20,000 nt of DNA from assembly GCF_004010195.1 (NCBI RefSeq), contig NC_057718.1, positions 69,624,771 to 69,644,770 on the forward strand. Direction: 5' to 3'. This document shows, in pieces, positions 1-19,354 of this stretch (the stretch's first letter is position 1; each line of letters starts with the position of its first letter). The translations under genes were made by a program, and so were the position numbers. Source of the DNA: Chiloscyllium plagiosum. Its lineage: Eukaryota. The notes beneath the pieces are model-generated. The model searched no databases. It worked only from the letters and a program-made list of their open reading frames with translations, and was not told the origin of the DNA.

Positions 1-1473
1 CATTAGGCAGCTCAGCATTCTTAGAGAGCAGAAGTCCGTGGATGAAAGGATGGTGGAAGGCTACAGACAGAAACTGCAATCATCATTCTTGAACAAAAGT
101 ATGGACCTGTGCAATTGTACATTGCTGATGAAAGTGGATTGTTTAGGTGTGCACTGCTGGACAAAACACTTGCAGCCACGGCAGAAAAGCAGGTGTTGGG
201 ACATAAAGTGCAGAAGAATTGCATCATGATTTTCACTTGTGTCAACGCCATTGGCACTCAATTTATCACTTGTCTGCATCGGCTGATATGCTAATCCATG
301 CTGCTTCAAGAACTGTGACAAAAACTCGTTTCCTGTGAAGTATAAAGCACAAAATAAGGCATGGATGTCATATCCACTTTTTTCATCCTAGTTCCATGAA
401 GATTTTGTACTTGCTATCAGATCACATTTGGCAAGCGCTGGACTCAAGCAATATTCCCTTCTGCTTGTTGACAATACAGGGGCACACACGGAAAAAGGTA
501 GCCAGTTAGAATCGGCAGACAGAGCTTTCAAGTGTTTATTTTTACCACCCACTTCAAGACTATAGCCGCTTGATCAGGGAATCATCGCAATTGTGAAAAA
601 ATATTATTGCCATTAACATGTTGCGTGCCATCCTGGGTGAAGGCAATACAGAGAAAAGAGTACGGGAAGTTATGAAGGCATTCACAGTCAAGGACACTTC
701 GTTCATGATTGCTGAATCTTGGGACTGCATCAAACCATCAACAATCGTGGAGTGTTGGCACAATGGCTTGTGTGTTGGTAACCATGCCAATGAAGAGGAC
801 ACCCGTCCAGTACAAAGGCAAACCACTGACATCATTGAAAACTGCAGACAGCTGGGATTAGGAGACTTTGTAGAGACTGAGATTGATGCTTAGGTGAACT
901 GTGACAACAACACTGGAACAGAGACAGAGACAGTCAGTGATGATCAGATAGTCAATGTAGTCACAGAAGAACAGTGGGAAAGTACAGACGCCATGGATGG
1001 TAAGGGAAATCTGATACTGACACCTCCTCCAGTCCCCGTTAACGAAGCTATTGAGAGTTTGCGACTTTTCATGGAGTGGTACAAGGCACAAGACAAAGTT
1101 GATGCCATTAAGTTGGTGAATCTTCACCAAATGTTATCATTCACGAAGAAAAGGAGGCAGCAGCACCTCAAACAACAGCAACTGGATATTTTCTTTGAAA
1201 ATAATAACCGACCTCCACCTCAATGAATTTGTGTACATGTACAGTAAATAAAAAAGTGATCTGATTTGTAAAATCTCATGAATTTTTAAGTGATGTCCAG
1301 TGTGTGTACAAATTTTAGCGATTGACTGAAATAAAAACTCTGTAAACATACTTTTTAATGCAATTATGTGCAGTATGGCTTCCTTGTTTAAGGTCAAATC
1401 AATTATCCAAATAATCAATTCTCTGAATGAAAAACTGCCTACCCATCTACTTCGGATAATTGAGGTTGCTCTG
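1..1473 (+). mobile_element. pogo/Tigger-type DNA transposon, 3' part (left end outside window)
   Basis: Decayed transposase, AATAAA at 1247-1252, and right TIR CGGATAATTGAGGTTGCTCTG (1453-1473; revcomp starts CAG) followed by TA at 1474-1475. Confidence 0.88.
109..1226 (+). pseudogene. Disrupted pogo/Tigger (CENP-B/jerky-like) DDD transposase
   Basis: Motifs YIADESGLF (D 127-129), GHKVQKN..FTCVNAIG, PVKYKAQNKAWM, LLLVDNTGAH (D 470-472), FLPPTSRL*PLDQGII (D 572-574) and C-terminal KQQQLDIFF. Stops at 563-565 and 891-893, plus frameshifts. Confidence 0.9.
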
Positions 1474-1475
1474 TA

Positions 1476-2429
1476 GGTGGGCAGACGGGGTGGGGTTGCC
1501 ATGCTAGTGAAAAATGCAATTAAATCAATAGCAATAAAAAAAAGTAGGCTCAGATGATGTAGAATCTGTGTGGGTAGAGTTGAGGAAACGCAAAAGTAAG
1601 AAAACCATAATGGGAGTTATCTATAGACCTCCAAACAGTAGTCAGGATTTGGGGCATAAGATACACCATGATATAGAAAAAGTATGTAAGAAAGGCAAAG
1701 TTACAGTGATCATGGGGAATTTCAATATGCAGGTGGACTAAGAAAGCCAGGTTAGTAGTGAATCGCAAAACAAGCAATTTGTGGAATGTCTAGGCGATGG
1801 CCATTTGGAGCAGCTTGTGGCAGGACATCTTCGAGGAGAAAGTGAGGGCTGCAGATCAGAGCTGAAAATGTGTTGCTGGAAAAGCGCAGCAGGTCAGGCA
1901 GCATCCAAGGGCTTATGCCCGAAACATCGATTCTCCTGTTCCTTGGATGCTGCCTGACCTGCTGCGCTTTTCCAGCAACACATTTTCAGCCCACTAGGGA
2001 ACAGGCAATACAGGATTTATTGTTGTGCAATGAGGCAGACTTGATAAGGAAGCTTAAGGTGAAGGAACCCTTAGGAGGCAGTGATAATAATATGATAGAA
2101 TTTACTCTACAATTTGAGGGGGAGAAAGTGGAATCAGATGTAACAGTATTACAGTTGAATAAATGTCACAACAGAGGCATGAGGGAGGAGAGGACCAGAA
2201 TTGACTGGAAGAGGAGCCTGGCAAGAAAGACAGTGAAACAGCAATGGCAGGGGCTTCTGGGGGTGATTTGAGAGAGACGGCAAAATTTCATCCCGAGGAA
2301 AAAGAAGCATGGTACTGGGAGGATGAGGCAACCATAGCTAACCAGGAAAGTCAGGGACAGCATAAAAGCAAATGAGAAAGCATATAATGTGGTGAAGGGC
2401 AGTGGGAAGCCAGAGCACTGAGAAGCCTA
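1476..2429 (+). mobile_element. CR1-clade LINE copy A, 5' segment (APE endonuclease region)
   Basis: GVAMLVK, VESVWVEL, GVIYRPPNS, MGNFN, PTREQAI.DLLLCNE and LGGSDNN motifs. Many stops. Interrupted at about 1824-1987. Confidence 0.88.
1824..1990. mobile_element. Short palindromic Penelope-like-element-derived insertion with partial hammerhead motif
   Basis: Perfect 50-bp inverted repeat 1861-1910/1941-1990, with GGGC-TTAT-GCCC-GAAAC at 1909-1925. It interrupts the LINE codons EQLVA|EPTRE. Confidence 0.75.
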
Positions 2430-4988
2430 ACTGACTGGGACTTCGATGTTGTGGCCATTTCGGAGACATGGTTAGAGCAGGGACAGGAATGGTTGTTGCA
2501 GGTTCCAGGATTTACATGTTTCAATAAGAACAGAGAAGATGGTAAAAGAGGGGGAGGTATGGCATTGTTGGTCAAGGACAGTATTACAGTCGCAGAAGGG
2601 ATGTTTGGGGACTCGTCAAATGAGGTTGTATGGGCTGAAGTTAGAAACAGGAAAGGAGAGGTCAACCTGTTGGGAGTTTTCTATAGGCCTCCGAATAGTT
2701 CCAGAGATGTAGAGGAAAGGATAGCAAAGATGATTCTCGATAGGAGTGAGAGAGACAGGGTAGTTGTCATGGGGGACTTCAACTTTCCAAATATTGACTG
2801 GGAAAACTATAGTGTGAGTACTATAGATAGGTCAGTTTTTGTCCAGTGTGTGCAGGAGGGCTTCCTGACACAGTATGTAGACAGGCCAACAAGGGGAAAA
2901 GCCACATTAGATTTGGTACTGGGTAATGAGCCCGGCCAGGTATTAGACTTGGAAGTAGGGGAGCACTTTGGTGAAAGCGATCACAATTCTGTTATGTTTA
3001 CTTTAATGATAGAAAGGGATAGGTGTATACCACTGGGCAAGAGTTACAGCTGGGGGAAAGGCAATTACGATGNNNNNNNNNNNNNNNNNNNNNNNNNNNN
3101 NNNNNNNNNNNNNNNNNNNNNNNNNNNNNNNNNNNNNNNNNNNNNNNNNNNNNNNNNNNNNNNNNNNNNNNNNNNNNNNNNNNNNNNNNNNNNNNNNNNN
3201 NNNNNNNNNNNNNNNNNNNNNNNNNNNNNNNNNNNNNAAAAGAATGACAAGAGTAAGATTAGGGCCAATCAAGGATAGTAGTGGGAAGTTGTGTGTGGAG
3301 TCAGAGGAGATAGGGGAAGCACTAAATGAATATTTTTCGACAGTATTCACTCTAGAAAACGGCAATGTTGTCGAGGAGATTACAGAGATACAGGTTACTA
3401 GACTCGGTGTGATTGAGGTTCACAAGGAAGAGGCATTAGAAATCCTGCAGAGTGTGCAAATAGATAAGTCCCCTGGACCGGATGGGATTTATCCTAGGAT
3501 CCTCTGGGAAGCCAGGGAGGAGATTGCCGAACCTTTGGCATTGATCTTTAAATCATCATTGTCTACAGGAATAGTGCCAGAAGATTGCAGGATAGCAAAT
3601 ATGGTTTTTCCCTGTTCAAGAAGGGGAGTAGAGACAATCCTGGTAATTATAGACCAGTGAGCCTTACTTCAGTTGTTGGTAAAGTGTTGGAAAAGGTTAT
3701 AAGAGATAGGATTTATAATCATCTAGAAAATAATAATTTGATTAAGGATAGTCAGCACGGTTTTGAAAAGGGTAGGTCGTGCCTCACAAACCTTACTGAG
3801 TTCTTTGAGAAGGTGACCAAACAGGTAGATGAGAATAAACCAGTTGATGTGGTGTATATGGATTTCAGCAAGGCGTTCGATAAGGTTCCCCACAGTAGGC
3901 TATTGTACAAAATGCAGAGGAATTGGATTTTATATAGCAGTTTGGATTAGTAATTGGCTTGCTGAAAGAAGACAGAGGGTGGTGGTTGATGGGAAATGTT
4001 CCTCCTGGAGTCCAGTTAACAGGGGTGTACCGCAAGGGTCGTTGTTGGGTCCACTGCTGTTCGTCATTTTTATAAACGACCTGGATGAGGGCGTAGAAGG
4101 GTGGGTTAGTAAATTTGCAGACAATACTAAAGTCGGTGGAGTTGTGGATAGTGACGAAGATGTTGTAGGTTATAGAGAGATAAAGATAAGCTGCAGAGCT
4201 GGGCTTAGAGGTGGCAAATGGAGTTTAATGCGGACAAGCGTGAGGTGATTCACTTTGGTCGGAGTAACCGGAATGCAAAGTACTGGGCTAATGGCAAGAT
4301 TCTTGGTAGTGTAGATGAGCAGAGAGATCCAGGTACACAGATCCTTGAAAATTGCCACCCAGGTTGACAGGGTTGTTAAGAAGACATACAGTGTCTTAAT
4401 AGAGGAATCGAGTTCCAGAACCATGAGGTTATGCTACAGCTGTACAATACTCTGGTGCGGCCTCACTTGAGTATTGTGTACAGTTCTGGTCACCACATTA
4501 TAAGGAGGATGTGGTAGCTTTGGAAAGGGTACAGAGGAGATTTACTACGATGTTGCCTGGTATGGAGGGAAGGTCTTACAAGGAAAGGCTGAGGGACTTG
4601 AGGCTGTTTTCGTTAGAGAGAAGAAGGTTGAGAGGTGACTTAATGGAGACATATAAGATAATCAGAAGGTTATATAGGGTGGACAGGGAGAGCCTTTTTC
4701 CAAGTATGGTGATGGCGAGCACGAGGGGGCATACCTTTAAATTGAGGGTTGATAGATATAGGACAGATGTCAGAGGTAGTTTCTTTACTCAGAGAGTAGC
4801 AAGGGTATGGAATGCTTTGCCTGCAATGGGAGTAGATTCACCAACTTTAAGTACATTTAAGTCGTCATTGGAGAAGCATTTGGACATACATGGAATAGTG
4901 AAGGTTAGATGGGCTTCAGATTGGTATGACAGGTCAGCACAACATTGAGGGCTGAAGGGCCTGTTCTGCGCTGTAATGTTCTATGTTC
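2430..4988 (+). mobile_element. CR1/HER1-like LINE copy B, 5'-truncated, nested in copy A
   Basis: AISETWL, GGGMALLV, YRPPNS, MGDFNFP, SDHN (APE domain); [36 protein letters not shown] (RT domain). 3' tail GGGCTGAAGGGCCTGTT...TGTTCTATGTTC. Confidence 0.95.
3073..3237. other. Assembly gap, 165 N
   Basis: Run of N inside LINE copy B. Confidence 1.
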
Positions 4989-6868
4989 GATAGAGGACAA
5001 CAAAGAAAGAAACAAGGAGGGAAAAGATTAAATATGAGGGTAAGTTATCCAGTAATATTAGGAAAGATTGTAAGAGTTTCTTTAGATATATCAAATGCAA
5101 AAGAGAGGTAAAAGTGGACATTGGGCCATTGGAAAATAATACTGGAGAAGTAGTAATGGGAAACAAAGAAATGGCTGAGGAACTGAATAAGTACTTTGCA
5201 TCAGTCTTCACAGTGGAAGGCAGGAGTAATATCCCAAAAATTCAAGAGAACCAGGGTCAGAGGTGAGTATGGTGGCGAACACCAAGGAGAAGGTGCTAGA
5301 AAAACTGAAAGGTCTGAACGTGGATAAATCACCTGGACCAGATGGTGTAGCATAGAGTTCTGAACGAGATAGCTGAAGAGATAGCGGAGGCTTTAGTAGT
5401 GATGTTTCAGGTATCATTGACGTCAGGGAGGGTCCTAGAGGAGCAGAAAATCGCTAATGTAACTCCCCTGTTTAAGAAGGGAGCAAGACAAAAGATGGGA
5501 AATTACAGACCGATTAGCCTGACCTCAGTCATTGGTAAGATTTGAGTCCATTGTGAAGGATGAGATTTCTGAATACTTGGAAGTGCATGGTAAAATAGAG
5601 CAAAGTCGGCATGGTTTTATCAAGGTGTTGCCAGACAAATCTGATGGAATTCTTTGATGAGGTACTGAACAAGTTACACCAAGGAGAGCCAAAGGATGTT
5701 ATCTATCTTGATTTCCAGAAGGCCTTTGATAAGGTGCCACACCCAGAGCTGCTGAGTAAGATATGGCCCACAGTGTTAGAGGCCAGGCACTAACATGGAT
5801 AGAAGATTGGCTGTCTGGCAGAAAGCAGGGATAAAGGTGTCTTTCTCAGGATGGAAGCTGGTAACTAATGGTTTTCCACAAGGATCAGTGTTGGAATCAC
5901 AACTTTTCACTTTATACAGTGAAATTATTTGGATGAAGGAACTGAGGGCATTCTGTCTAAGTTTCCAGATGATACAAGATAGATGGAGGATCAGGTAGTA
6001 TTTAGGCGGCAGGGAAGCTGCAGAAAGATTTGGACAGGTTAGGAGAGTGGGCAAAGAAGTGGCAGATGAAATACAATGTGAAAAAGTATGAGGTAATGTG
6101 CTTTGATAAGAAGAATACAGGCATAGATTATTTTCTAAATGGGAAGAAAATTTAGAAATCTGAAGTGCAAAGTGACTTGGATATCTTGATCCAGGTTTAT
6201 CTTAAGGTAAACTTGCAGGTTGAGTCAGTAGTTAGGAAGGCAAATGTAATGTTGTCATTCATCACAAAAGGAGTAGAATATAAAAGGAGGGATGTATTTC
6301 TGAGGCTTTAAAAGGCTCTAGTCAGAGTATTGTGAGCAGTTTAGGGTTACATACCTCAGGAAAGGTGTATTGGTCCTGCAGTGGGTCCACAGGATGTTAA
6401 CAAGAATGATCCCAGGAATGAAAGACTTAACATATGAGCAACATTTAAGGACTCTGCGATGGGGGGCGGGGGGAAATCTAACAAACTTTCAGAATACTGA
6501 ATGCCTAGACAAAGGGGATGTTGGGATGATGCTTCCATTGGCAGGATAGACAAGGACCCGAAGGCACAGTCTGAGAGTAAAGGGAAGACCTATCAGAACA
6601 GAAATAAGGGGAAACGTCTTTAGCCAGAGAGTGGTGAATCTGTGGAATTCATTGCCACAGAAAGCTGTGGAGGCCAGGTCATTGAGTATAATTTTAAAAA
6701 AAGAAATAGATAAGTTCTTGATTGCTAAGGGGATCAAAGGTTACAGGGAGAAAGCAGGAAAATAGGGTTGAAAAACTTATCAGCTGTGATCGAGTGGCAG
6801 AACAGACTCGATGGGCCGAATGGCCAAATTTCTGCTCCTTTGTCTCATGATCTAATAATCTTATAATC
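4989..6868 (+). mobile_element. CR1-clade LINE copy A, 3' segment (RT and 3' tail)
   Basis: LNKYFASVFT, DKSPGPDG, NYRPISLTS, YLDFQKAFDKV, PQGSVL, KFPDD, FSQRVVNLWNSLP. Tail GGGCCGAATGGCC...TCTTATAATC. It resumes the linker region broken at about 2429. Confidence 0.9.
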
Positions 6869-7718
6869 AACCTATTCCACATCCTGTTGTTTCTTTTTTG
6901 TGTCATTGGTGAGTAACACAGATTAAGCAGTGTAGATGCTGTCAATTTGAAAAGGATGTTTATTTAAGAGGATGATAACTGTGCATGATTTTATTTGGAT
7001 TGCACGTGGCAGTTAATCATCTGGTTACATCCCCGTCCTTGGCTCATTCGTATTTTCAGTTCCAAAAGAAACATAGCTCTTAAAGCAATAATATGCGGTC
7101 CCCTTGCTTTACAAGGCAAAATTCCATATACTGAATTAAAATATAGATAGGTTCTTGTAGTTGCAAAACTATTTCCATAGAATTAAGAATTGAACATTTT
7201 AAGAGCCTAAATGTCTGTATAATATACAATTCTTGTGATATGCATAACTCTTTAAAGATTTTAATTTCATGTCAGTGTTCTCAGCTTGTAGAGGTGTTGG
7301 AATTTTGTTTGCTGCTAGCATGTTGATTTTATCCTGATGCTATTCCACATCTTCATTATTGTTGTTTGTGTTTTGCGTACAATCAGAAAGTTTTACTGTT
7401 GCCTGAATTAGCTTCTGTTTTACCTCCATGTTGATTTGTTGTTGTAGAATCTAAGGTTACTGTCTACTTTGAACACCTCTGCAGGCAACCATGTTTTCTG
7501 TGTAAGACTCAAATTGTCCTACATTAAGTATAGACAGTTTCACAACACTATTTCGGTCACGCACCTTCTTCATTCTTCCTTGTTTTTGGGGTTGTTTCTT
7601 CTATATCTGAGAATTTAAGACAGGTAACAGCTTGGCAGGATTGTCCTAGCTTGCCTTACAAACATATCCCTTGCTGATGACAGTAGGCCCAGACACTGAA
7701 GTGTACATTTTTTGGTAC

Positions 7719-7820
7719 ATAAACAGAAGTTGCTGGAAAAGTTTAGCATGTCAGGCAACATCTGGAAAGAGAAATCAAAGTTAACGTTTCTGGTCCGATG
7801 ACCCTTCCTCAGAACTGAAG
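7719..7820 (-). mobile_element. Short Penelope-like-element terminal fragment
   Basis: Shares GTTGCTGGAAAAG..AGCA.GTCAGGCA.CATC with the 1861-1910 arm. Flanked by 9-bp direct repeat TTTTGGTAC (7710-7718, 7821-7829). Carries a hammerhead motif. Confidence 0.75.
7779..7816 (-). ncRNA. Minimal type I hammerhead ribozyme motif (stem II basal mismatch)
   Basis: Minus strand: AGUU-CUGAGGA-A-GGGUC-AUCG-GACCA-GAAA-CGUU-AACU. Stem I AGUU/AACU, stem II GGUC/GACC, palindromic ACGU in place of stem III. Confidence 0.7.
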
Positions 7821-7835
7821 TTTTGGTACCAGGTT

Positions 7836-8139
7836 TTAGATTAGATTAGATCCCCTACAATGTGGAAACAGGCCCTTCGGCCCAACAAGTCCACACCGAC
7901 CCTCCAAAGAGTAACCCACCCAGACCCATTCCCTCTGACTAATGCACCTAACACTATGGGTAATCTAGCTTGGCCAATTCACCTAACCTGCAGATCTTTG
8001 GACTGTGGAGGAAACAGGAGCACCCAGAGGAAACCCACGCAGATACGGGGAGAATGTGCAAACTCCACACAGTCACCCGAGGTTAGAATCGAACCTGGGA
8101 CCATGGTGCTGTGAGGCAGCCATACTAACCACTCAGCCC
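7836..8139 (-). mobile_element. HE1-like tRNA-derived SINE
   Basis: Minus strand: GCTGAGTGGTTAG (A-box region), GGTTCGATTC (B box), central core, CR1-like tail GGGCCGAAGGGCCTGTTTCC and (TCTAA)3. Confidence 0.92.
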
Positions 8140-9445
8140 CCTTTGTAGCAGTCAAAGTCAGATCCTATACTTTTACAAGGTGTCATTTTAGTCTAATTGG
8201 TACATTTATCAGTGATATGCTTCAAATAATTCCCAGTGGTTTGTGATCAGTAAATTGTTTGCTGAACAGATATTCACACACTTCAGAACAGTCAGATTTT
8301 GCTTCCAAGACATATCTGGATCCAATTGCAACTGATTTGCTATTATGCATCATGCACACTGCTAGCTGTTTCTGAGATGCATTGATTAACAGGATTGCCT
8401 TTTTTCTTGGGTCATAATACTGTACGATACAAGCTTCTGCTGATAATACTTATTTGGATGATTCAAATTGGTGTTGAATATCTTCCTGCCATACATCTTT
8501 CCTTATGAGCTCTCTCAACAACAATACTTTTCTGGAAAGATTTCTACATATGATGCTAAGCAGTTGAAAAGTCTGATGCATTGCTGTAGGTCTTCTTTGT
8601 CTTGAGTGTTAAGCATATGTCTTACACCTTCAAATTTGCTTATTACAGAAACAAAAAAGCTGATCTAAGCTACATTTACCTTGCATGTGTTGTTGTCAAA
8701 GACAAGTCATTTACACAGGCTACAGGCATTACTGAGTGCAGACTTTGGTTGTGCACTTGTTTGGTTCCATAAATCCCCAATATATTAGCAGCAATATATT
8801 CACATTCAAGAACATTTTCCGTAGTTCTGCCCATTTGCTGTTGGAACAAATCCTGACTGACAGACAGACTGAAAGGTAGTCTCCCGAAGCAACATCTTCC
8901 AAATAGTGTTCTAAAATAGCAATTTCCTGAGATTCACTTGTCAAGTTTACCAACTGATAAGTGTGTTTGTTATTCAGCTTGGAGAAGAATTTAGCTCCTG
9001 TGAATTTATGGTGCAGTTCCTTGAATGTTGGAATTTTGCATGGATACCTTTTTAGGAAATGATTTGAATGTCTTGGGTGAAATGTGCTTTGATTTTTCTT
9101 TAGCATGTACATGATAGAATTTCACTATTCTGCATTATAAACATGATAGATTATGCCATTATGTTCCACATACCCAAATCATTCTCGAACTTCACTTATA
9201 TTTGTACACAGCTTTTTCTGGCAGGATTGATTGATGGGATGACATCGTCTAAGGTGCACGAACACTTTAGACTGCCCTGTGAAATAGAATCTGTGTACTA
9301 TTGCTGTTAGCCCTGAAGTGGGATGCAATTAGAGGAGACTTAGTATATCCACTCGTATTTTGTTGATCTCATGAATGGTCACAATGTTAAGACCTGTGCA
9401 CACCAGTAATAGTGCTATGGTCCATTTCAGATGCATGTGAGGTGA

Positions 9446-11059
9446 AAAATATCCATATTACAGAGGTGTGGTGCTGGTCTTAAAATGCATAAAGATGGAT
9501 AAATCTCCAGGATCCAATCAGGTTTACCCTAGAACTCTGGGGGATGCTAGAAAAGTGATTTCTGGGCCCCATGCTGAGATATTTGGATCATCAGTAGTCA
9601 CAGGTAAGGTGCTAGAAGACTGAAGGTTGGTTAACATGGTGCCACTATTTAAGAAAGGTGGTAAGAGAAAGTCAGGGAAGTATAGACCGGTGAGCCTGAC
9701 ATCCATGATGGGCAAGTTGTTGGAGGGAATCCTGAGGGACAGGATTTACATATATTTGGATAGGCAAGGACCGATTAGAAATAGTTAACATAGCTTTGTA
9801 CATGGGAAATCATGTCCCACTAATTGATTGTGGTTTTGAAGAAGTAACAAAGATGATTGATGAGGGCAGAGTGGTAGACATGATCTATATGAACTTCAGT
9901 TAAGGCATTTAACAAGGTCCCTCATGATAGACTGATTAGCAAGGTTAGATCACATGGAATAGAAGGAGACTAGCCACTTGGGTATAGAACTGGGTCAAAG
10001 GTAGAAGACAGAAGATGGTGGTGGAGGGTTGCTTTTCGGACTGGAGGCCACGACCAGTAGTGTGACACAAAAATCAGTGCTGGGTCCACTGCTTTTCATC
10101 ATTTATGTAAATGATAGGAGATACAGTTAGTAAGTTTGTAGATGGCATCAAAGTTGGAGGTGCAATGGAAAGCGAAGAAGGTTACCTCAGAGTACAATGA
10201 AATCTTGATCAGATGGGCCAATAGGCTGAGGAATGGACATTAGTATTTAATTTAGTTAAAGGTGAGGTGCGCATTTTGGAAAGGCATGTCAGGGCAGGAA
10301 TTTTACACTAACTGGTAAGGTCTTGGTGAGTGTTGTTGAACAAAGACACCTTGGAGTGCAAGTTCATTGTTCCTCGAAAGTGGAGTCACAGTTAGAAAGG
10401 ATAATGAAGAAGGCATTTGGTATGCTTTTCTCTATTGGTCAGAGTTTTGAGTATAGGAGTTGGGAGGTCATGTTGCAGTTGTACAGGACATTGGTCAGGC
10501 CACTTTGGAATACTGTGTGCAATTCTGGTCTCCCTGCTACAGGAAGCCTGTTGTGAAACTTTATAAGAGTTCAGAGAAGATTTACAAGGATGTTGCCAAG
10601 ATTAGACAGTTTGAGCTACAGGGAGAGGTTGAATAGGCTGGGGCTGTTTTCCCTGAAGTGTCAGAGGATGAGGGGTGACCTTATAAAAGTTTTTAAAGTC
10701 ATGAGGAGCATGGAGAGGGTAAATAAACAAGGTCTTTTCCCTGGGGTGGGGGAGTCCAGAATTAGAGGACATAGGCATGGAGTGAGAGGGGAAAGATTTA
10801 AAAGGGACCGAAGTGTCAACTTTTTCACTCAGAGGGTGCTGTATGCATGGAATGAGTTGCCAGAGGAAGTGGTGCATGCAGGTACAATTACAACATTTAA
10901 AAGGCATCTGGATGGGTATATGAATAGGAAGGGTTTAGAGGAATATGGGCCAAGTGCTGGCAAATGGGACGAGATTAATTTAGGATATCTGGTCATGGAC
11001 GAGTTGGATGGAAGGGTCGGTTTCCGTATGGTATGTCTCTATGAGTCTATAAACCTATG
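9446..11059 (+). mobile_element. CR1/HER1-like LINE copy C, 5'-truncated, decayed RT
   Basis: DKSPG, YRPVSLTS, SVLGPLLF, KFVDG (degraded FADD), LYRTLVRP, ERLNRLGLFSL, FFTQRV..WNELP, and CTATGA-type tail. Confidence 0.92.
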
Positions 11060-11237
11060 ATGACCTTGGGCAAGGCAGACAAGGCAGGATAAACAGTACG
11101 ACCTTGGGAAGCACTCAGGATCACAGGGATCTTGGTGTGGACGTCCTTAAGATATCAGGACAGATGGATTAAGTGGTTAAGAAGGCAATTGTTATAGTTG
11201 CCTTTATTAGCTGAGACTTAACGTATTTGTGCAGAAA

Positions 11238-11559
11238 GGCAGCATGGTGATTCAGTGGTTAGCACTGCTGCCTCACAGCGCTAGAGACCCAGGTTTGATT
11301 CAAGCCTCGGATGACTGTCTGTGTTTGCACATTCTCCCAGTGTCTGCATGGGTTTCCTCTGGTGCTCCGATTTCCTCCCACAGACTAAATTGCCCATAAT
11401 GTTCAGGGATATGTAGGTTAGGTGCATTAGTCAGGGGTAAAATGTACAGTGGTAGGGAGGGGGAAGTGAGTTTGGGTGGGTTGCTCTTCAGCAGTTGGTG
11501 TGGACTTGTTGGGTCAGGTAGCCTGTTTCCATATTGTAGGGAATTCTATGATTCTATGA
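11238..11559 (+). mobile_element. HE1-like SINE (ATTCTATG-tail type)
   Basis: GGCAGCATGGTGATTCAGTGGTTAGCACTGCTGCCTCACAGC head, GGTTTGATTC B box, tail (ATTCTATG)2. Confidence 0.92.
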
Positions 11560-11630
11560 GGTTATGCTGGAGCTCTGCAAGACATTGTCTGGGCCACAGT
11601 TAGAATATCGTGTGAAGCTCTGCTACATTA

Positions 11631-11923
11631 TAGATTAGATTACATTACAGTGTGGAAACAGGCCCGACCACACCAACCCGCCAAAGCGCAACCCACCCAT
11701 ACCTCTACATTTACCCCTTACCTAACACTACGGGCAATTTAGCATGGTCAATTCACCTGACCTGCACATCTTTGGACTGTGGGAGGAAACCGGAGCACCC
11801 GGAGGAAACCCACGCAGACACAGGGAGAACGTGCAAACTCCACACAGTCAGTCGGTGGGAATTGAACCCGGGTCTCAGGCGCTGTGAGGCAGCAGTGCTA
11901 ACCACTGTGCCACCGTGCTGCCC
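11631..11923 (-). mobile_element. HE1-like SINE, intact head (TAATC-tail type)
   Basis: Minus strand GGGCAGCACGGTGGCACAGTGGTTAGC head and GGTTCAATTCC B box. Small deletion in the 3' stem-loop. Confidence 0.94.
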
Positions 11924-12787
11924 AGGTTCGAGTGCTTCCCAAGATCATTGTTAGAGAAATGTGATGGCACTGGAGGGGATGTGGAGATTTAACAGGATGT
12001 TGCCTCAGCTGAACAAGTATGAAGAGAGATTGGACAGTCTGAGGTTGTCTTCCTTAGAGAAGAATGAGAGGGCCTGATTGAGATGCACAAAATTATGAAG
12101 TGTATAGATAGGGTAGGCAGGAAGAAAAGTTTTCACTTGATGGAAAGGGATCAATGACCAGGGGCAAATATTTAAAGTAAGGTCGAAAAGGTTTAGAGGA
12201 GACACAAGGATAAGTTTTGTCACCAAGAGAGTGGTGGGAATCTGGAACTCACTGAACGTTAGAATTAGAAACTCATATAACAACATTTAAGAAGTATTTA
12301 TTCGTGCACATGCAATGCCAAGGTATACAAGACTATGGGCCAAGTACCAGAAAATGTGATTAGAATGGTTAGGGGTAGTGTTTGAAGCAGACATGATGGA
12401 TCTGTAGATCTGTAAGAGTTCGATGACTGTATGAGAAGAGGGTGAAGCTTAAGATGTAAAACAAGCCCTGTCTTGTAGGACATTGTCTCTGACACATCTA
12501 CACTCTCAACCAGCACAGATTCATTCACCTCAGTCAGTCCACTATCTATAGTAAGCTCAGGGATCAGTGTTTTGTGAGCACATCACTAATATGTATTCAC
12601 ACTTGGCAGATGAATCAACACCTGACATCTCTAGTACTCAAGAGGACAGCTGGAGTCCAGTCTTCTACTGAGCCCTATGCAGATGATATGCCTCATAACC
12701 CAACCAGGCAAGCGAACATCAGGCAGTGATGCTGGAGGCTCTTAATAGACTAGAGTGGTAGATTAAGAAAGTTCCATCAGTTGTAAC

Positions 12788-12870
12788 TTGTTAGGTGGCC
12801 ATTTTTGATTGGCACAGACACAATGATCCAAAGGGGCCTTTATGTTGTAGATCTCTACGAGTCTATGACT
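12788..12870 (+). mobile_element. Isolated CR1 3'-UTR/tail fragment
   Basis: GGCACAGACACAATG..CC.AAGGGGCC...TCTCTACGAGTCTATGACT resembles the tails of the other LINEs in the window. Confidence 0.6.
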
Positions 12871-13195
12871 ACTTTATTTTAGGCATATGTTGTCAACAGC
12901 GACAAAAGCTTTTACCTGTTTGACTTTATTCACATAACGTGTCAAGTTCACAATGTGAAAAGCCTGTTTGCTTTCTGTTCAAAGGTTTTTCATCTCTGAA
13001 TCATCACTCCCGTACATTTTGCTGTGAATGTGTTTCTGGCAGTGTCCAGTGTAAAGGTGTCCTTTGACAGCACTGCATTTGTGGAGTTCTTAGAATGCAG
13101 GAAAATTTTGTGGTGAGGGGAGCAGTCTCCACTTCTCTCACACCCTGCTTGCTGTGTTCCCTGGCTACTGTGTCAGTACTATTGGAGGTAAAATT

Positions 13196-13275
13196 ACCTG
13201 GTAATCCTCTTATTTTCAATATACTTATAAAAAGCCTTGGGGTTTTCAACTGCTTGTAGCTATTGTTTTCTGGCA
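13196..13275 (-). mobile_element. Small minus-strand CR1 ORF2 linker fragment
   Basis: Minus strand encodes ENPKAFYKYIENKRITR, compared with ENPKGFYKYIKDKRVTR at 19912-19962. Confidence 0.7.
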
Positions 13276-13425
13276 CTTATCGCCAATTAGTCATTTTGGA
13301 AAGCTTTAATAGGTGCTCTGAAAAATCAGTCTTAACCCTTGTCACAGCACCTACTGACAAACTATCAAATAATTCCTGTCTCTGTTGCCTGTAATATATC
13401 AATTGTTGATAATGAATTCTAAAAA

Positions 13426-13615
13426 TGATTTGGAGATGCCGGTGGTGGACTGGGGTGTACAAAGTTAAAAATCACACCATACCAGATTATAGTCCAACAG
13501 GTTTAATTGGAAACACTAGCTTTCGGAGCGCGACTCCTTCACCTGATGAAGGAGCGACACTCCGAAAGCTAGTGTGCTTCCAATTAAACCTGTTGGACTA
13601 TAACCTGGTGCTGTG
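13426..13615. mobile_element. Palindromic Penelope-like-element-derived insertion
   Basis: Imperfect ~77-bp inverted repeat (about 13465-13541 / 13547-13625). 13-bp flanking direct repeat TGAATTCTAAAAA (13413-13425, 13616-13628). Central hammerhead motif. Confidence 0.82.
13540..13574 (+). ncRNA. Minimal type I hammerhead ribozyme motif, complete core
   Basis: CAC-CUGAUGA-A-GGAG-CGACA-CUCC-GAAA-GCUA-GUG. Stem I CAC/GUG, stem II GGAG/CUCC, palindromic AGCU in place of stem III, CUA cleavage triplet. Confidence 0.78.
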
Positions 13616-13712
13616 TGAATTCTAAAAAGTTTTCTTTTACCCAAAGTTGAACTTCCAGATTTCCCATAGCTTAAAAGGGTCCTTTGGTCTTCTTGAGATA
13701 GCTGTGATGTTT

Positions 13713-13887
13713 TGACTCTTTTCAATTCGTTGGGCTGAATCTCACTTTTTTTCCCCTTTGTTTACAGACACCCTCCTTGGAAATTGATGCCATGTTCCTA
13801 ACCTCCCTACACTCCAGGTCCTGCACCCTGAAGCTACAATCTGACTCTTTTCAATTCGTTGGGCTGAATCTCACTTTTTTTCCCCTT
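13713..13887 (+). repeat. Perfect 46-bp direct repeat separated by 83 bp
   Basis: TGACTCTTTTCAATTCGTTGGGCTGAATCTCACTTTTTTTCCCCTT at 13713-13758 and 13842-13887. Confidence 0.97.
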
Positions 13888-13982
13888 AAGTGCAAGTTGT
13901 GTCAAGGTTTATTGGAGGAATTCACAGCACAAGGCCTAGTGAAATTTCCTGTTGTACTTTAACAAATGTGCCTCATTAACTA

Positions 13983-16767: not shown

Positions 16768-17431
16768 AGTGGTGGGTAACATTCGTACAACAAAAATGAC
16801 AGGCTATGGTCATCACCAATAAGAAACAATCTAATCACCACCCCTGATGTTGAATGGTATTGCCATCACTGAACCCCCAATTACAACATCCTGGGGATTA
16901 CTATTGACCAGAAACTCAACTGGACTTATCACATAAACACAAAGGCCACAAGAGTCGGTCAGAGACTACGGGAGACTGTCTGCGTGAGTTTACGTTAGGT
17001 GCTCCAGTTTCCTTCCACAGTCCAAAGATGTGCAGGTTAGGTGGATTAGCAATGCCCATAGTATCCAGGGATGTGTGGGCTAGATGGATTAGTCTTGGGA
17101 AATGCAGTATACCCGGAGACAGTAAGGGCACTGGTGTGGGTGGGATGCTGTTCCGAGGAGCAATGTGGACTCAATAGGCCAAACAGACTGCTTCCATGCT
17201 GTAGGGATTCTATGAATACTGTGGCAAGCAACTCTCTGCCTGAGTCCCCAAAACCTGTCCATCATCAACAAGGTACAAGTAGGAGTGGGAGTCAACAGCA
17301 TATGGTCTGCAGGTGTTCAAGAAGGCAGCTCATCACCACCTTCTCAAGGGCAACCATGAATAGGCAATAATTATTGGCCAGCCAGATACCCACATCCTAC
17401 AAACCAATAAAAAACAAAACAAAATAAAAAA
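16768..17431 (+). mobile_element. 3' fragment of a distinct CR1/L2-group LINE with A-rich tail, internally deleted and SINE-interrupted
   Basis: NILGITIDQKLNWTYHIN (post-RT LG..D..L.W..HI motif), then LSPQNLSIINKVQV after the SINE, FKKAAHHHLL, and an AATAAA/A-rich end. Confidence 0.75.
16970..17214 (+). mobile_element. 5'-truncated, diverged HE1-like SINE
   Basis: Core GGTGCTCCAGTTTCCTTCCACAGTCCAAAGATGTGCAGGTTAGG and tail CTGTAGGGATTCTATG. No tRNA head. Confidence 0.85.
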
Positions 17432-17639: not shown

Positions 17640-18440
17640 CAGATCAAATGGATCGGTTAGAACAACAGTTTATAAGCAATGAAAAATTTACAAGAGCAAG
17701 GGACGGCAATTGGTGGATGGCAATTATACGAAGAGAGAAAAGTCACAGATACAGTCACATAGATGGGTTAACTCCAGGAAAGGTAAGAGAGGTAGGCAGG
17801 TAGTGCAGGAATCTTCTGTGGCTATCCCTATTTCAAACAAGAATGCTGTTTTGGAAGATGTAGGGGGTGATGGATTCTCAGGGAATCTAGCATGAGCACC
17901 CAAACTTCTGGTATCAAGGTGGGATCGAATGCAAGGAAGGGTACAACAGGTGCCAAAAGATCAATTGTGTTAGGGGATGTTTCTGTGGCCAGCAGTGAAA
18001 AATCGGAATGGTGTGTTGCTTCCCTGTTGCCAGGATGAAGGATATCTCAAAGAAAGTGCAGAATGTTCACAAGGGGGAGAGGGCCCAGCAGAAGGTCATT
18101 GTACACGTTGGAACCAACGAAATAGGAAGGGAAAAGGATGAGATTCTGAAGGGAGAATATAGAGACTAAGGCAGGAATTTAAAAAGGAGGACCTTGAGAG
18201 TAGTAACATCTGAATTACTCCCAGTACTATGCGCTAGTGAGAGTAGGAATAGGAGGATAGAGCAGACGAATGCATGGCTGAGAAGCTGGTGTATGAGAGA
18301 AGGATTCACATTTTTAGATCATTGGAATCTCTTCTGGAGTAGAAGTGACCTGTACCAGAAGGGCAGATTGCACCTGAATTGGAAGGGGACCAATATGCTG
18401 GCAGGGAAATTTGCTAGAACTGCTTGGGAGGATTTAAACT
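17640..18440 (+). pseudogene. Disrupted LINE ORF1 with SGNH/GDSL esterase domain
   Basis: IPISNKNAVL, IVLGD (block I, truncated), VCCFPVAR (block II), VIVHVGTN (block III) and GRLHLNWKG (block V, DxxH degraded). Confidence 0.82.
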
Positions 18441-19045
18441 CAGGGAGACAGTGAGGAAAGAGATCAATCTGAAGACCAGTACAGTTGGGAAAGGGAGTCA
18501 GTCAAACAGTCAGGGCAGGCAGGGACAAAGCAGAGAACAAGGTAGGACTGAGAAATTAAACTACATTTATTTCATTGCAAGAGGGAAGGCAGATGAACTC
18601 AGGGCATGGTTGGGAACATGGGACCCAGATATCATAGCAATGACAGAAACTTGGCTCAGGGATGGGCAGGACTGGCAGCTAATGTTCCAGCATACAAATT
18701 GTATAGGAATAATAGAAAGGGGGTCAGGAGCTAAGGGGGAATGGCATTTTTGTTAAGGGATAGCATTACTGCTGAACTGAGGGTGGATGTTCCTGGGAAT
18801 ACATCCAGGGAAGTTATTTGGATGGAACTGAGAAAGAAGAAAGGGATGTTCACCTTATTGGGATTGTATTATAGACCCCCTAATAGTCAGTGGGAAATTA
18901 AGAAACAAATTTGTAAGGAGATTTCAGTTCTCTGCAAGAATAATAAGTTAGTTATGGTAGGGCATTTTAACTTTTCAAACATGGACTGGGACTGTCATTG
19001 TGTTAAGGGCTTAGATAGAGAGGAATTTAATAAGTGCGTACAAGA

Positions 19046-19354
19046 GTGGGCACAATGGTTAGCACTGCTGCCTCACAGCGCCAGAGACCCGGGTTCAATT
19101 CCCGCCTCAGGCGACTGACTGTGTGGAGTTTGCACATTCTCCCAGTGTCTGCGTGGGTTTCCTCCGGGTGCTCCGGTTTCCTCCCACAGTCCAAAAATGT
19201 GCAGGTCAGGTGAATTGGCCATGCTAAATTGCCAGTAGTGTTAGGTGAAAGGGTAAATGTAGGGGAATGGGTCTGGGTGGGTGCGCTTCGGCGGGTCGGT
19301 GTGGACTTGTTGGGCTGAAGGGCCTGTTTCCACAATGTAAGTAATCTAAAAAAA
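19046..19354 (+). mobile_element. HE1-like SINE inserted in LINE copy F
   Basis: TGGTTAGCACTGCTGCCTCACAGC head, GGTTCAATTCC B box, tail GGGCTGAAGGGCCTGTTTCC..TAATCT plus A-run. Candidate TSD AAGA (19042-19045, 19355-19358). Confidence 0.94.

Follow-up and report, generated by a model that had tools for sequence, protein, structure and literature searches.

Hammerhead motifs in a Chiloscyllium plagiosum locus as very probable 3'-end copies of Penelope-like retrotransposons

What are three short elements with hammerhead-like motifs, spread over 12 kb of the Chiloscyllium plagiosum genome, and is any of them a working ribozyme? They lie in what we call the window, the whole stretch analysed here, 20,000 nucleotides (nt) of contig NC_057718.1 (positions 69,624,771 to 69,644,770, assembly GCF_004010195.1), and are termed E1 (1824-1987), E2 (7719-7820, minus strand) and E3 (13426-13615). 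Very probably they are dead-on-arrival copies of the 3' end of the terminal repeat of endonuclease-bearing Penelope-like elements (PLEs) of two lineages; E3 retains the whole hammerhead, that of E2 is damaged, and that of E1 is truncated.

A full descriptor of the minimal type I hammerhead, composed after the sequence had been inspected and run over both strands of the window, matches only E3 (13540-13574, plus strand). The null model, 300 dinucleotide shuffles of the window, yielded 2 matches, and 0 in 300 when the palindrome was also required. The E3 motif comprises a 3-bp stem I (CAC/GUG), the core CUGAUGA (0 mismatches to CUGANGA) followed by the extra A that separates A9 from G10.1, stem II GGAG/CUCC (13551-13563) with the G10.1-C11.1 pair, GAAA, an AGCU palindrome and A17 at 13571, after which the cut is predicted. 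It fits the published consensus NNN CUGANGAH G..C GAAAN palindrome NUH NNN (PMC4209133, supplement 2). Parts of the motif are less specific: a 4-bp stem followed by GAAA occurs 25 times in the window against 15.9 +/- 3.9 in the shuffles, and for that reason is weak evidence alone, while a loose pattern, CUGANGA and then GAAA within 9-26 nt, is found at four places, namely E2, E3 and two that fail the full descriptor.

E2 is a solo stub of 102 bp that starts 8 nt upstream of its core. On the minus strand the core (7812-7805), free of mismatches and followed by the extra nucleotide between A9 and G10.1, leads into stem II, GGUC/GACC as first drawn (7803-7792), then GAAA (7790-7787), an ACGU palindrome, U17 at 7783 and a 4-bp stem I. 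The preliminary description had GAAA directly after each stem II, which is mistaken for E2: an A at 7791 stands between GACC and GAAA, the stem as drawn was shifted by one, and G10.1 lies opposite an A, not the conserved C11.1. E1 consists of two head-to-head arms set within a LINE (long interspersed nuclear element) copy of what we take to be CR1 type. Its short arm (1907-1987, plus strand) holds stem II (GGGC/GCCC, 1909-1920, with the G10.1-C11.1 pair kept), GAAA (1921-1924), a decayed palindrome that reads ACAU, and C17 at 1928; the catalytic core is missing, the 8 nt preceding stem II showing 5 mismatches to CUGANGAN, and there is no stem I. The CUGANGA core of E1 is lost at the inversion junction. 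The three motifs described earlier do exist, each where it had been placed, but only one of them is a complete hammerhead.

The family to which E1 belongs was followed through four sequencing runs placed on 1770-2040 at 80% likeness, and the read data therefore concern this family only. Three runs are of contigs (52,448 placed from X2, organism A; 53,182 from X11, organism B; 12,044 from X17, organism C), and the fourth, X21, is a fragmented polyA single-cell library from which 2601 of 12,955,460 raw RNA records were placed; the read table gives frequencies position by position, without linkage between positions. Before 1907 the loose ends of the contigs share 14 letters, CCTCATTCCTGATG, in X2 (1269 contigs), X11 (1483) and X17 (314), from which those of X21 (737 raw reads) differ at N7, read as A. 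These ends carry the core with the extra nucleotide between A9 and G10.1, so the E1 family has the core that the E1 copy is without. Over the 30 letters farther upstream the four consensuses differ for the most part (agreement 0.44-0.50), which would fit a family in which most copies start about 8 nt before the core, like E2. The palindrome of the family is ACGU, G being the most frequent letter at 1926 or nearly so: it makes up 69% of the depth of X2, 49% of X11 and 66% of X17, and in 471 of 580 and 605 of 861 reads of X21; the earlier suspicion that ACAU in E1 is a decayed ACGU was right. Among the ribozyme changes listed for the family are C>T and G>A at the CpG sites 1920, 1921 and 1928 (5-8% of depth in X2) and changes in the loop at 1914 and 1915 (5-6%).

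Three side observations concern these motifs. The CpG-type changes are strand-skewed in X21 (C>T at 1920 in 142 of 540 against 80 of 786 reads, G>A at 1921 in 52 of 543 against 217 of 806), which may come from a few expressed loci. Around 1847-1855, between two similar 9-nt units, the E1 copy is short by 9 tail nucleotides that are common in reads of the family; at 1847 most of the raw reads with an insertion add 9 letters (84+47 of a depth of 301). Finally, the leader preceding the core can pair with it as a small hairpin in E2 (7806-7820, minus strand), E3 (13536-13551) and, by eye, the E1 family, and such a hairpin could hold the ribozyme off or stop reverse transcriptase (RT).

The edges and centres of the elements tell how they may have arrived. 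E2 is flanked by a 9-bp target-site duplication (TSD; 7710-7718 and 7821-7829), a length of at least 9 bp being reached by 4 of 500 random boundary pairs, and E3 by one of 13 bp (13413-13425 and 13616-13628), reached by none of 500. E1 has no TSD longer than chance; empty copies of its host LINE in the reads join 1818-1820 to 1987-1988, which places its left edge at 1821-1824. Its long arm (1824-1910, minus strand) begins downstream of the ribozyme and is made of 3' body and a one-sided tail (1824 to 1860-1863), and the arms are 100% complementary between 1861-1910 and 1941-1990. E3, a head-to-head stub of 190 bp, has a long arm (13426-13541, minus strand) that starts within the core, lacking CUGA, and again bears a one-sided tail; its arms are only about 85% identical. 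One arm thus exceeds the other by 37-40 nt in E1 and by 39-49 nt in E3, and in both it is the tail-less arm that holds more of the ribozyme. At the centre of E1 the letters AAGG (1907-1910) fit both arms. At that of E3, CTTCAC precedes the core, as it does in the related contig L002 described below, and CTTCA/TGAAG is a natural 5-bp inverted repeat usable by both arms. The E3 long arm was considered as a second hammerhead and rejected, its apparent core being junction sequence with 2 mismatches.

Long inverted arms also characterise miniature inverted-repeat transposable elements (MITEs) and microRNA hairpins, and Rfam does report mir-2756 at E1 with 44 bits; were E1 and E3 of either kind, their likeness to hammerheads would be fortuitous. 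A MITE has symmetric terminal inverted repeats and a fixed short TSD, whereas here the arms are unequal, the tail is one-sided and the TSDs measure 13 bp and none. The mir-2756 match falls below the gathering score of 61 bits and appears on both strands, descriptor matches are as rare in shuffles as given above, and the E3 motif adjoins RT and GIY-YIG fragments in the contigs discussed below. This origin is accordingly close to negligible in our estimation. We set aside mir-2756 and mir-2007 as hairpin artefacts with scores below threshold. At E<=1 Rfam gave four matches in the window, none to a hammerhead family; the suggestion that hammerheads are under-annotated in this genome holds as far as Rfam is concerned.

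The anatomy is better accounted for by PLE retrotransposition, for which we propose the following course. The element's enzyme would nick the target and copy only the last 100-130 nt of its own RNA, often halting just upstream of the core, as at E2. E1 and E3 would come from priming on both strands of the target, with one start at the tail and the other 40-50 nt deeper; microhomology of 4-5 nt within or beside the ribozyme would then have let the two cDNAs anneal. PLEs are described with an inverted pseudo-long terminal repeat (pLTR), a tail of 30-40 bp and a TSD of 8-10 bp or none with microhomology (PMC3846280, PMC8557442); in vitro, two RT start sites bound the tail and both strands are extended (PMC11167929). 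A simple fold-back of one cDNA is disfavoured, the ribozyme-richer arm being tail-less in both E1 and E3. Our literature search, going by titles and abstract openings, found no paper on twin priming with Penelope. As separate observations, the E3 TSD (13616-13625) resembles the element at the end of the short arm, with 8 of 10 letters in common with the long arm, and the E1 short arm ends in 3 nt common with the target; each is a hint that microhomology took part in priming.

A link to PLEs comes from two metagenome contigs, L001 and L002, which carry an animal-type PLE fragment and were matched by the E3 pattern with 23 letters fixed in the search. Being 99.6% identical over 677 nt, they count as one observation. 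Their ribozyme (964-1001 in L001, 1328-1365 in L002) is identical to that of E3 at 35 of 38 nt (92%); outside the fixed letters L002 equals E3 at 6 of 6 upstream and 4 of 4 downstream letters, which are all of stem I and H17, while loop II of the two contigs agrees with that of E3 in only 2 of 5 letters. Stem I of L002 has 5 bp. The body downstream of the ribozyme is strongly diverged from that of E3, with weak homology (its score reached by 3 of 2000 shuffles). Some 0.3-0.8 kb from this ribozyme lie RT and GIY-YIG fragments: an RT piece (RVT_1, E 1.5e-5, below cut-off), and a second frame with a Cys-rich linker and GIY-YIG-type motif, 44-47% identical to the RT+GIY-YIG proteins P0001 and P0002. 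Pfam support for GIY-YIG is itself below cut-off (E 0.0086 in P0001), and PF01541 is found in many relatives; P0034, from a catshark, has 52% identity to the RT piece and to the GIY-YIG-type piece alike. The contigs show ribozyme and enzyme fragments as neighbours, not in canonical position. Together with the core of the E1 family in the reads, this link upholds the earlier assignment of the motifs to a large population of PLE-type minimal hammerheads.

Other searches gave nothing further. The translated elements, compared with 120 PLE-type proteins, produced no credible match (the best, with E 0.008, fell on the long arm, on its non-coding strand); the E1/E2 motif had no match among metagenome or viral contigs, and no linked open reading frame (ORF) was found for it; the E3 motif had none in viral contigs, and the E3 body none in prokaryotic genomes.

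Several points weigh against a PLE origin by the course proposed. No PLE ORF was found in the window, where the 120 proteins gave three matches, all from one protein and all onto the RT copies of the LINEs; the link of E1/E2 to such an ORF is thus one of architecture. The array in L001 and L002 is rearranged, with the ribozyme on the strand opposite the RT piece. Stem I of the E1 family has only 2 contiguous pairs when set against the 3' strand of this copy, and the conservation of its stem II was judged on the changes listed in the variant table. The tails measure 37-49 nt, according to the point at which the short arm is taken to end, compared with a published 30-40; twin priming is read from two junctions only; and the account favoured by Arkhipova (2013) is one of self-priming, with an antisense template (PMC3846280).

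Could any of these copies be kept by the host as a working ribozyme, so that the stems reflect selection on these loci? The E3 motif is intact even though its arms are only about 85% identical, and the 35-mer alone is predicted to fold with stems I and II as drawn (pair probabilities 0.83-0.98). In context the prediction changes: stem I pairing is 0.000 in the whole of E3, which is locked in a predicted hairpin of -107.7 kcal/mol, 0.001 in the E3 right arm alone, and 0.002 or less in E2. Two of the three copies are broken, the E3 motif is solo, and no cleavage was seen with monomeric minimal hammerheads (PMC4209133). Host-kept function at these loci therefore seems to us very improbable. On the PLE interpretation selection would have maintained the ribozyme in the parent elements, its cleavage there presumably depending on dimer formation or on assistance from protein, and the solo copies would be decaying passengers, none predicted to fold actively in place. 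The past selection on ribozyme function that had been proposed would, where visible, belong to those parent lineages and not to the decaying copies seen here.

It is also conceivable that the stubs are mini-retroelements in their own right, non-autonomous in the manner of a SINE (short interspersed nuclear element) or retrozyme, transcribed and mobilised as units whose ends the ribozyme makes. Very high read depth is confined to a unit of 100-160 nt, the E1 family and E2 both have their 5' edge some 8 nt before the core, and animal retrozymes are traced to PLE pLTRs in a 2026 preprint, which records them in the single chondrichthyan of its sample (bioRxiv 10.64898/2026.07.22.740005). That shared edge, however, lies upstream of the core and not at the cut site, the centres of E1 and E3 differ from each other and break the core, and no tandem or further copies were found in the window. 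Transcription points the same way: 98% of the 2601 RNA reads continue into unlike sequence, as expected of passengers in host transcripts, and the E1 family is likely transcribed as such. No pile-up of read ends was seen in the four runs, a negative that is uninformative for contigs and a fragmented polyA single-cell library, and no RNA run was listed as covering 12400-13900, the E3 region. We judge independent mobility unlikely.

The preliminary description also held that the stems of the three elements covary. For the comparison E1-E3 were set in register on G12, a MAFFT alignment of four ribozymes being out of register and set aside. E1 and E2 share 34 nt of 3' body at 85% identity, an alignment score matched by 0 of 2000 shuffles, while downstream of stem II E3 is unrelated to either (559 and 1940 of 2000 shuffles reach the two scores). 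The window therefore samples two lineages, E1/E2 and E3, and not three independent ones. In the true register stem II has two-sided changes only at 10.3 (G-C, G-C, A-U) and 10.4 (C-G, U-A, G-C). Such changes are compatible with covariation and give no test of it, since the three stems had been picked by hand, two of them belong to related families, and one had been drawn out of register. The same inference, with several families per genome, covarying stems and solo copies in their thousands, had appeared in print in 2014 (PMC4209133); by itself the window adds three ordinary copies, two of them broken, of a kind known since then.

Numbers may be of more consequence. The window has three elements in 19,835 called bases, or 151 per Mb (95% interval 31-442), and one intact motif, or 50 per Mb (1.3-281), both densities leaning high because the window was picked for this feature. 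In X2 the summed contig depth, which is not copy number, reaches 2.1 million over stem II of E1 against 1,300-13,000 on the flanking LINE. Divided by the depth of a single contig (6.7) and allowing for up to 31-fold overlap, it brackets the E1 family between 1x10^4 and 3x10^5 copies. We consider 10^4 to 10^5 copies or more probable, a number that may surpass the published maxima: the highest counts of minimal hammerheads given in PMC4209133 are about 4,000 in coelacanth and about 9,000 in Xenopus tropicalis, and 14,255 retrozymes are reported in axolotl (bioRxiv 10.64898/2026.07.22.740005). An expansion of Penelope in whale shark introns has been described (10.1101/443036), and no count of solo hammerheads in sharks turned up in the freely accessible literature searched.

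We entertain, with considerable doubt, a bolder proposition, that no hammerhead population yet described is as large as that of this genome (at least 10^5 motifs, more than 10 times the published maxima) and that its stubs record the end of insertion: cDNAs primed on both strands would join by microhomology at the inverted repeat of the ribozyme (CUUCA...UGAAG, also in L001 and L002), and ribozyme sequence would shape the insertion ends without having to cut. The PLE hammerhead is dispensable for insertion in vitro (PMC11167929) and is absent from Naiads (PMC8557442). Scale could matter in two ways: with tens to hundreds of thousands of dated copies in several families, covariation in the minimal hammerhead could be tested strongly, and the ends of Penelope insertions could be analysed statistically.

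The rest of the window is repeat-rich DNA of vertebrate type (GC 0.43, CpG observed/expected 0.27). It includes several broken LINE copies, in which Exo_endo_phos and RVT_1 domains were detected (in 7 of the 30 frames scanned). A frame at 18170-18454, upstream of a LINE endonuclease piece, is GDSL-lipase-like (E 6e-6, below cut-off) and presumably resembles the ORF1 esterases of CR1-type elements. Five pieces or copies of a SINE of about 300 bp with a tRNA-like head (7846-8142, 11238-11544, 11636-11922, 16977-17055 and 19045-19349) belong, we assume, to V-SINE/HE1. Broken frames at 46-1226 have a motif that we take to be that of pogo/Tigger transposases; none of the three matches Pfam at E<=0.01. 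A perfect 46-bp direct repeat with an 83-bp spacer (13713-13758 and 13842-13887), 85 nt downstream of E3, may have arisen by local duplication or in assembly, or else be a very long TSD.

Among known systems the closest are the minimal hammerheads of metazoan PLEs (Cervera and de la Pena 2014, PMC4209133), which have the same core with an extra nucleotide, the G10.1-C11.1 pair, a palindromic 15.1-16.1 and a short stem I, occur as several families per genome with covarying stems, and are mostly solo copies from truncated PLEs, some paired on opposite strands 100-700 bp apart; the main-text parts examined and the two supplementary files searched include no shark. The insertion units of endonuclease-positive PLEs (PMC3846280, PMC8557442) likewise have an inverted, 5'-truncated pLTR, a tail at one end only and either a TSD of about 8-10 bp or, where there is none, microhomology. 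The inserts here differ in being pLTR only (100-190 bp) with no ORF, in the 13-bp TSD of E3 and in tails of 37-49 nt. Non-LTR retrozymes (bioRxiv 10.64898/2026.07.22.740005) resemble the stubs in being non-coding, hammerhead-bearing, derived from PLE pLTRs and present in one chondrichthyan; they are defined as tandem arrays with at least two intact ribozymes, whereas the stubs stand alone or head-to-head, most of them with a broken motif. Poseidon PAc of Anolis (Frangieh 2024, PMC11167929) has the hammerhead in its pLTR, two RT start sites that define the tail, both strands cut and extended, and no RNA-seq ends at the cut site, all of which we take to be paralleled here. The Cys-rich linker between RT and endonuclease in L002 is like that of Neptune and Nematis, and judging by it the families of the window probably belong to another clade than Poseidon.

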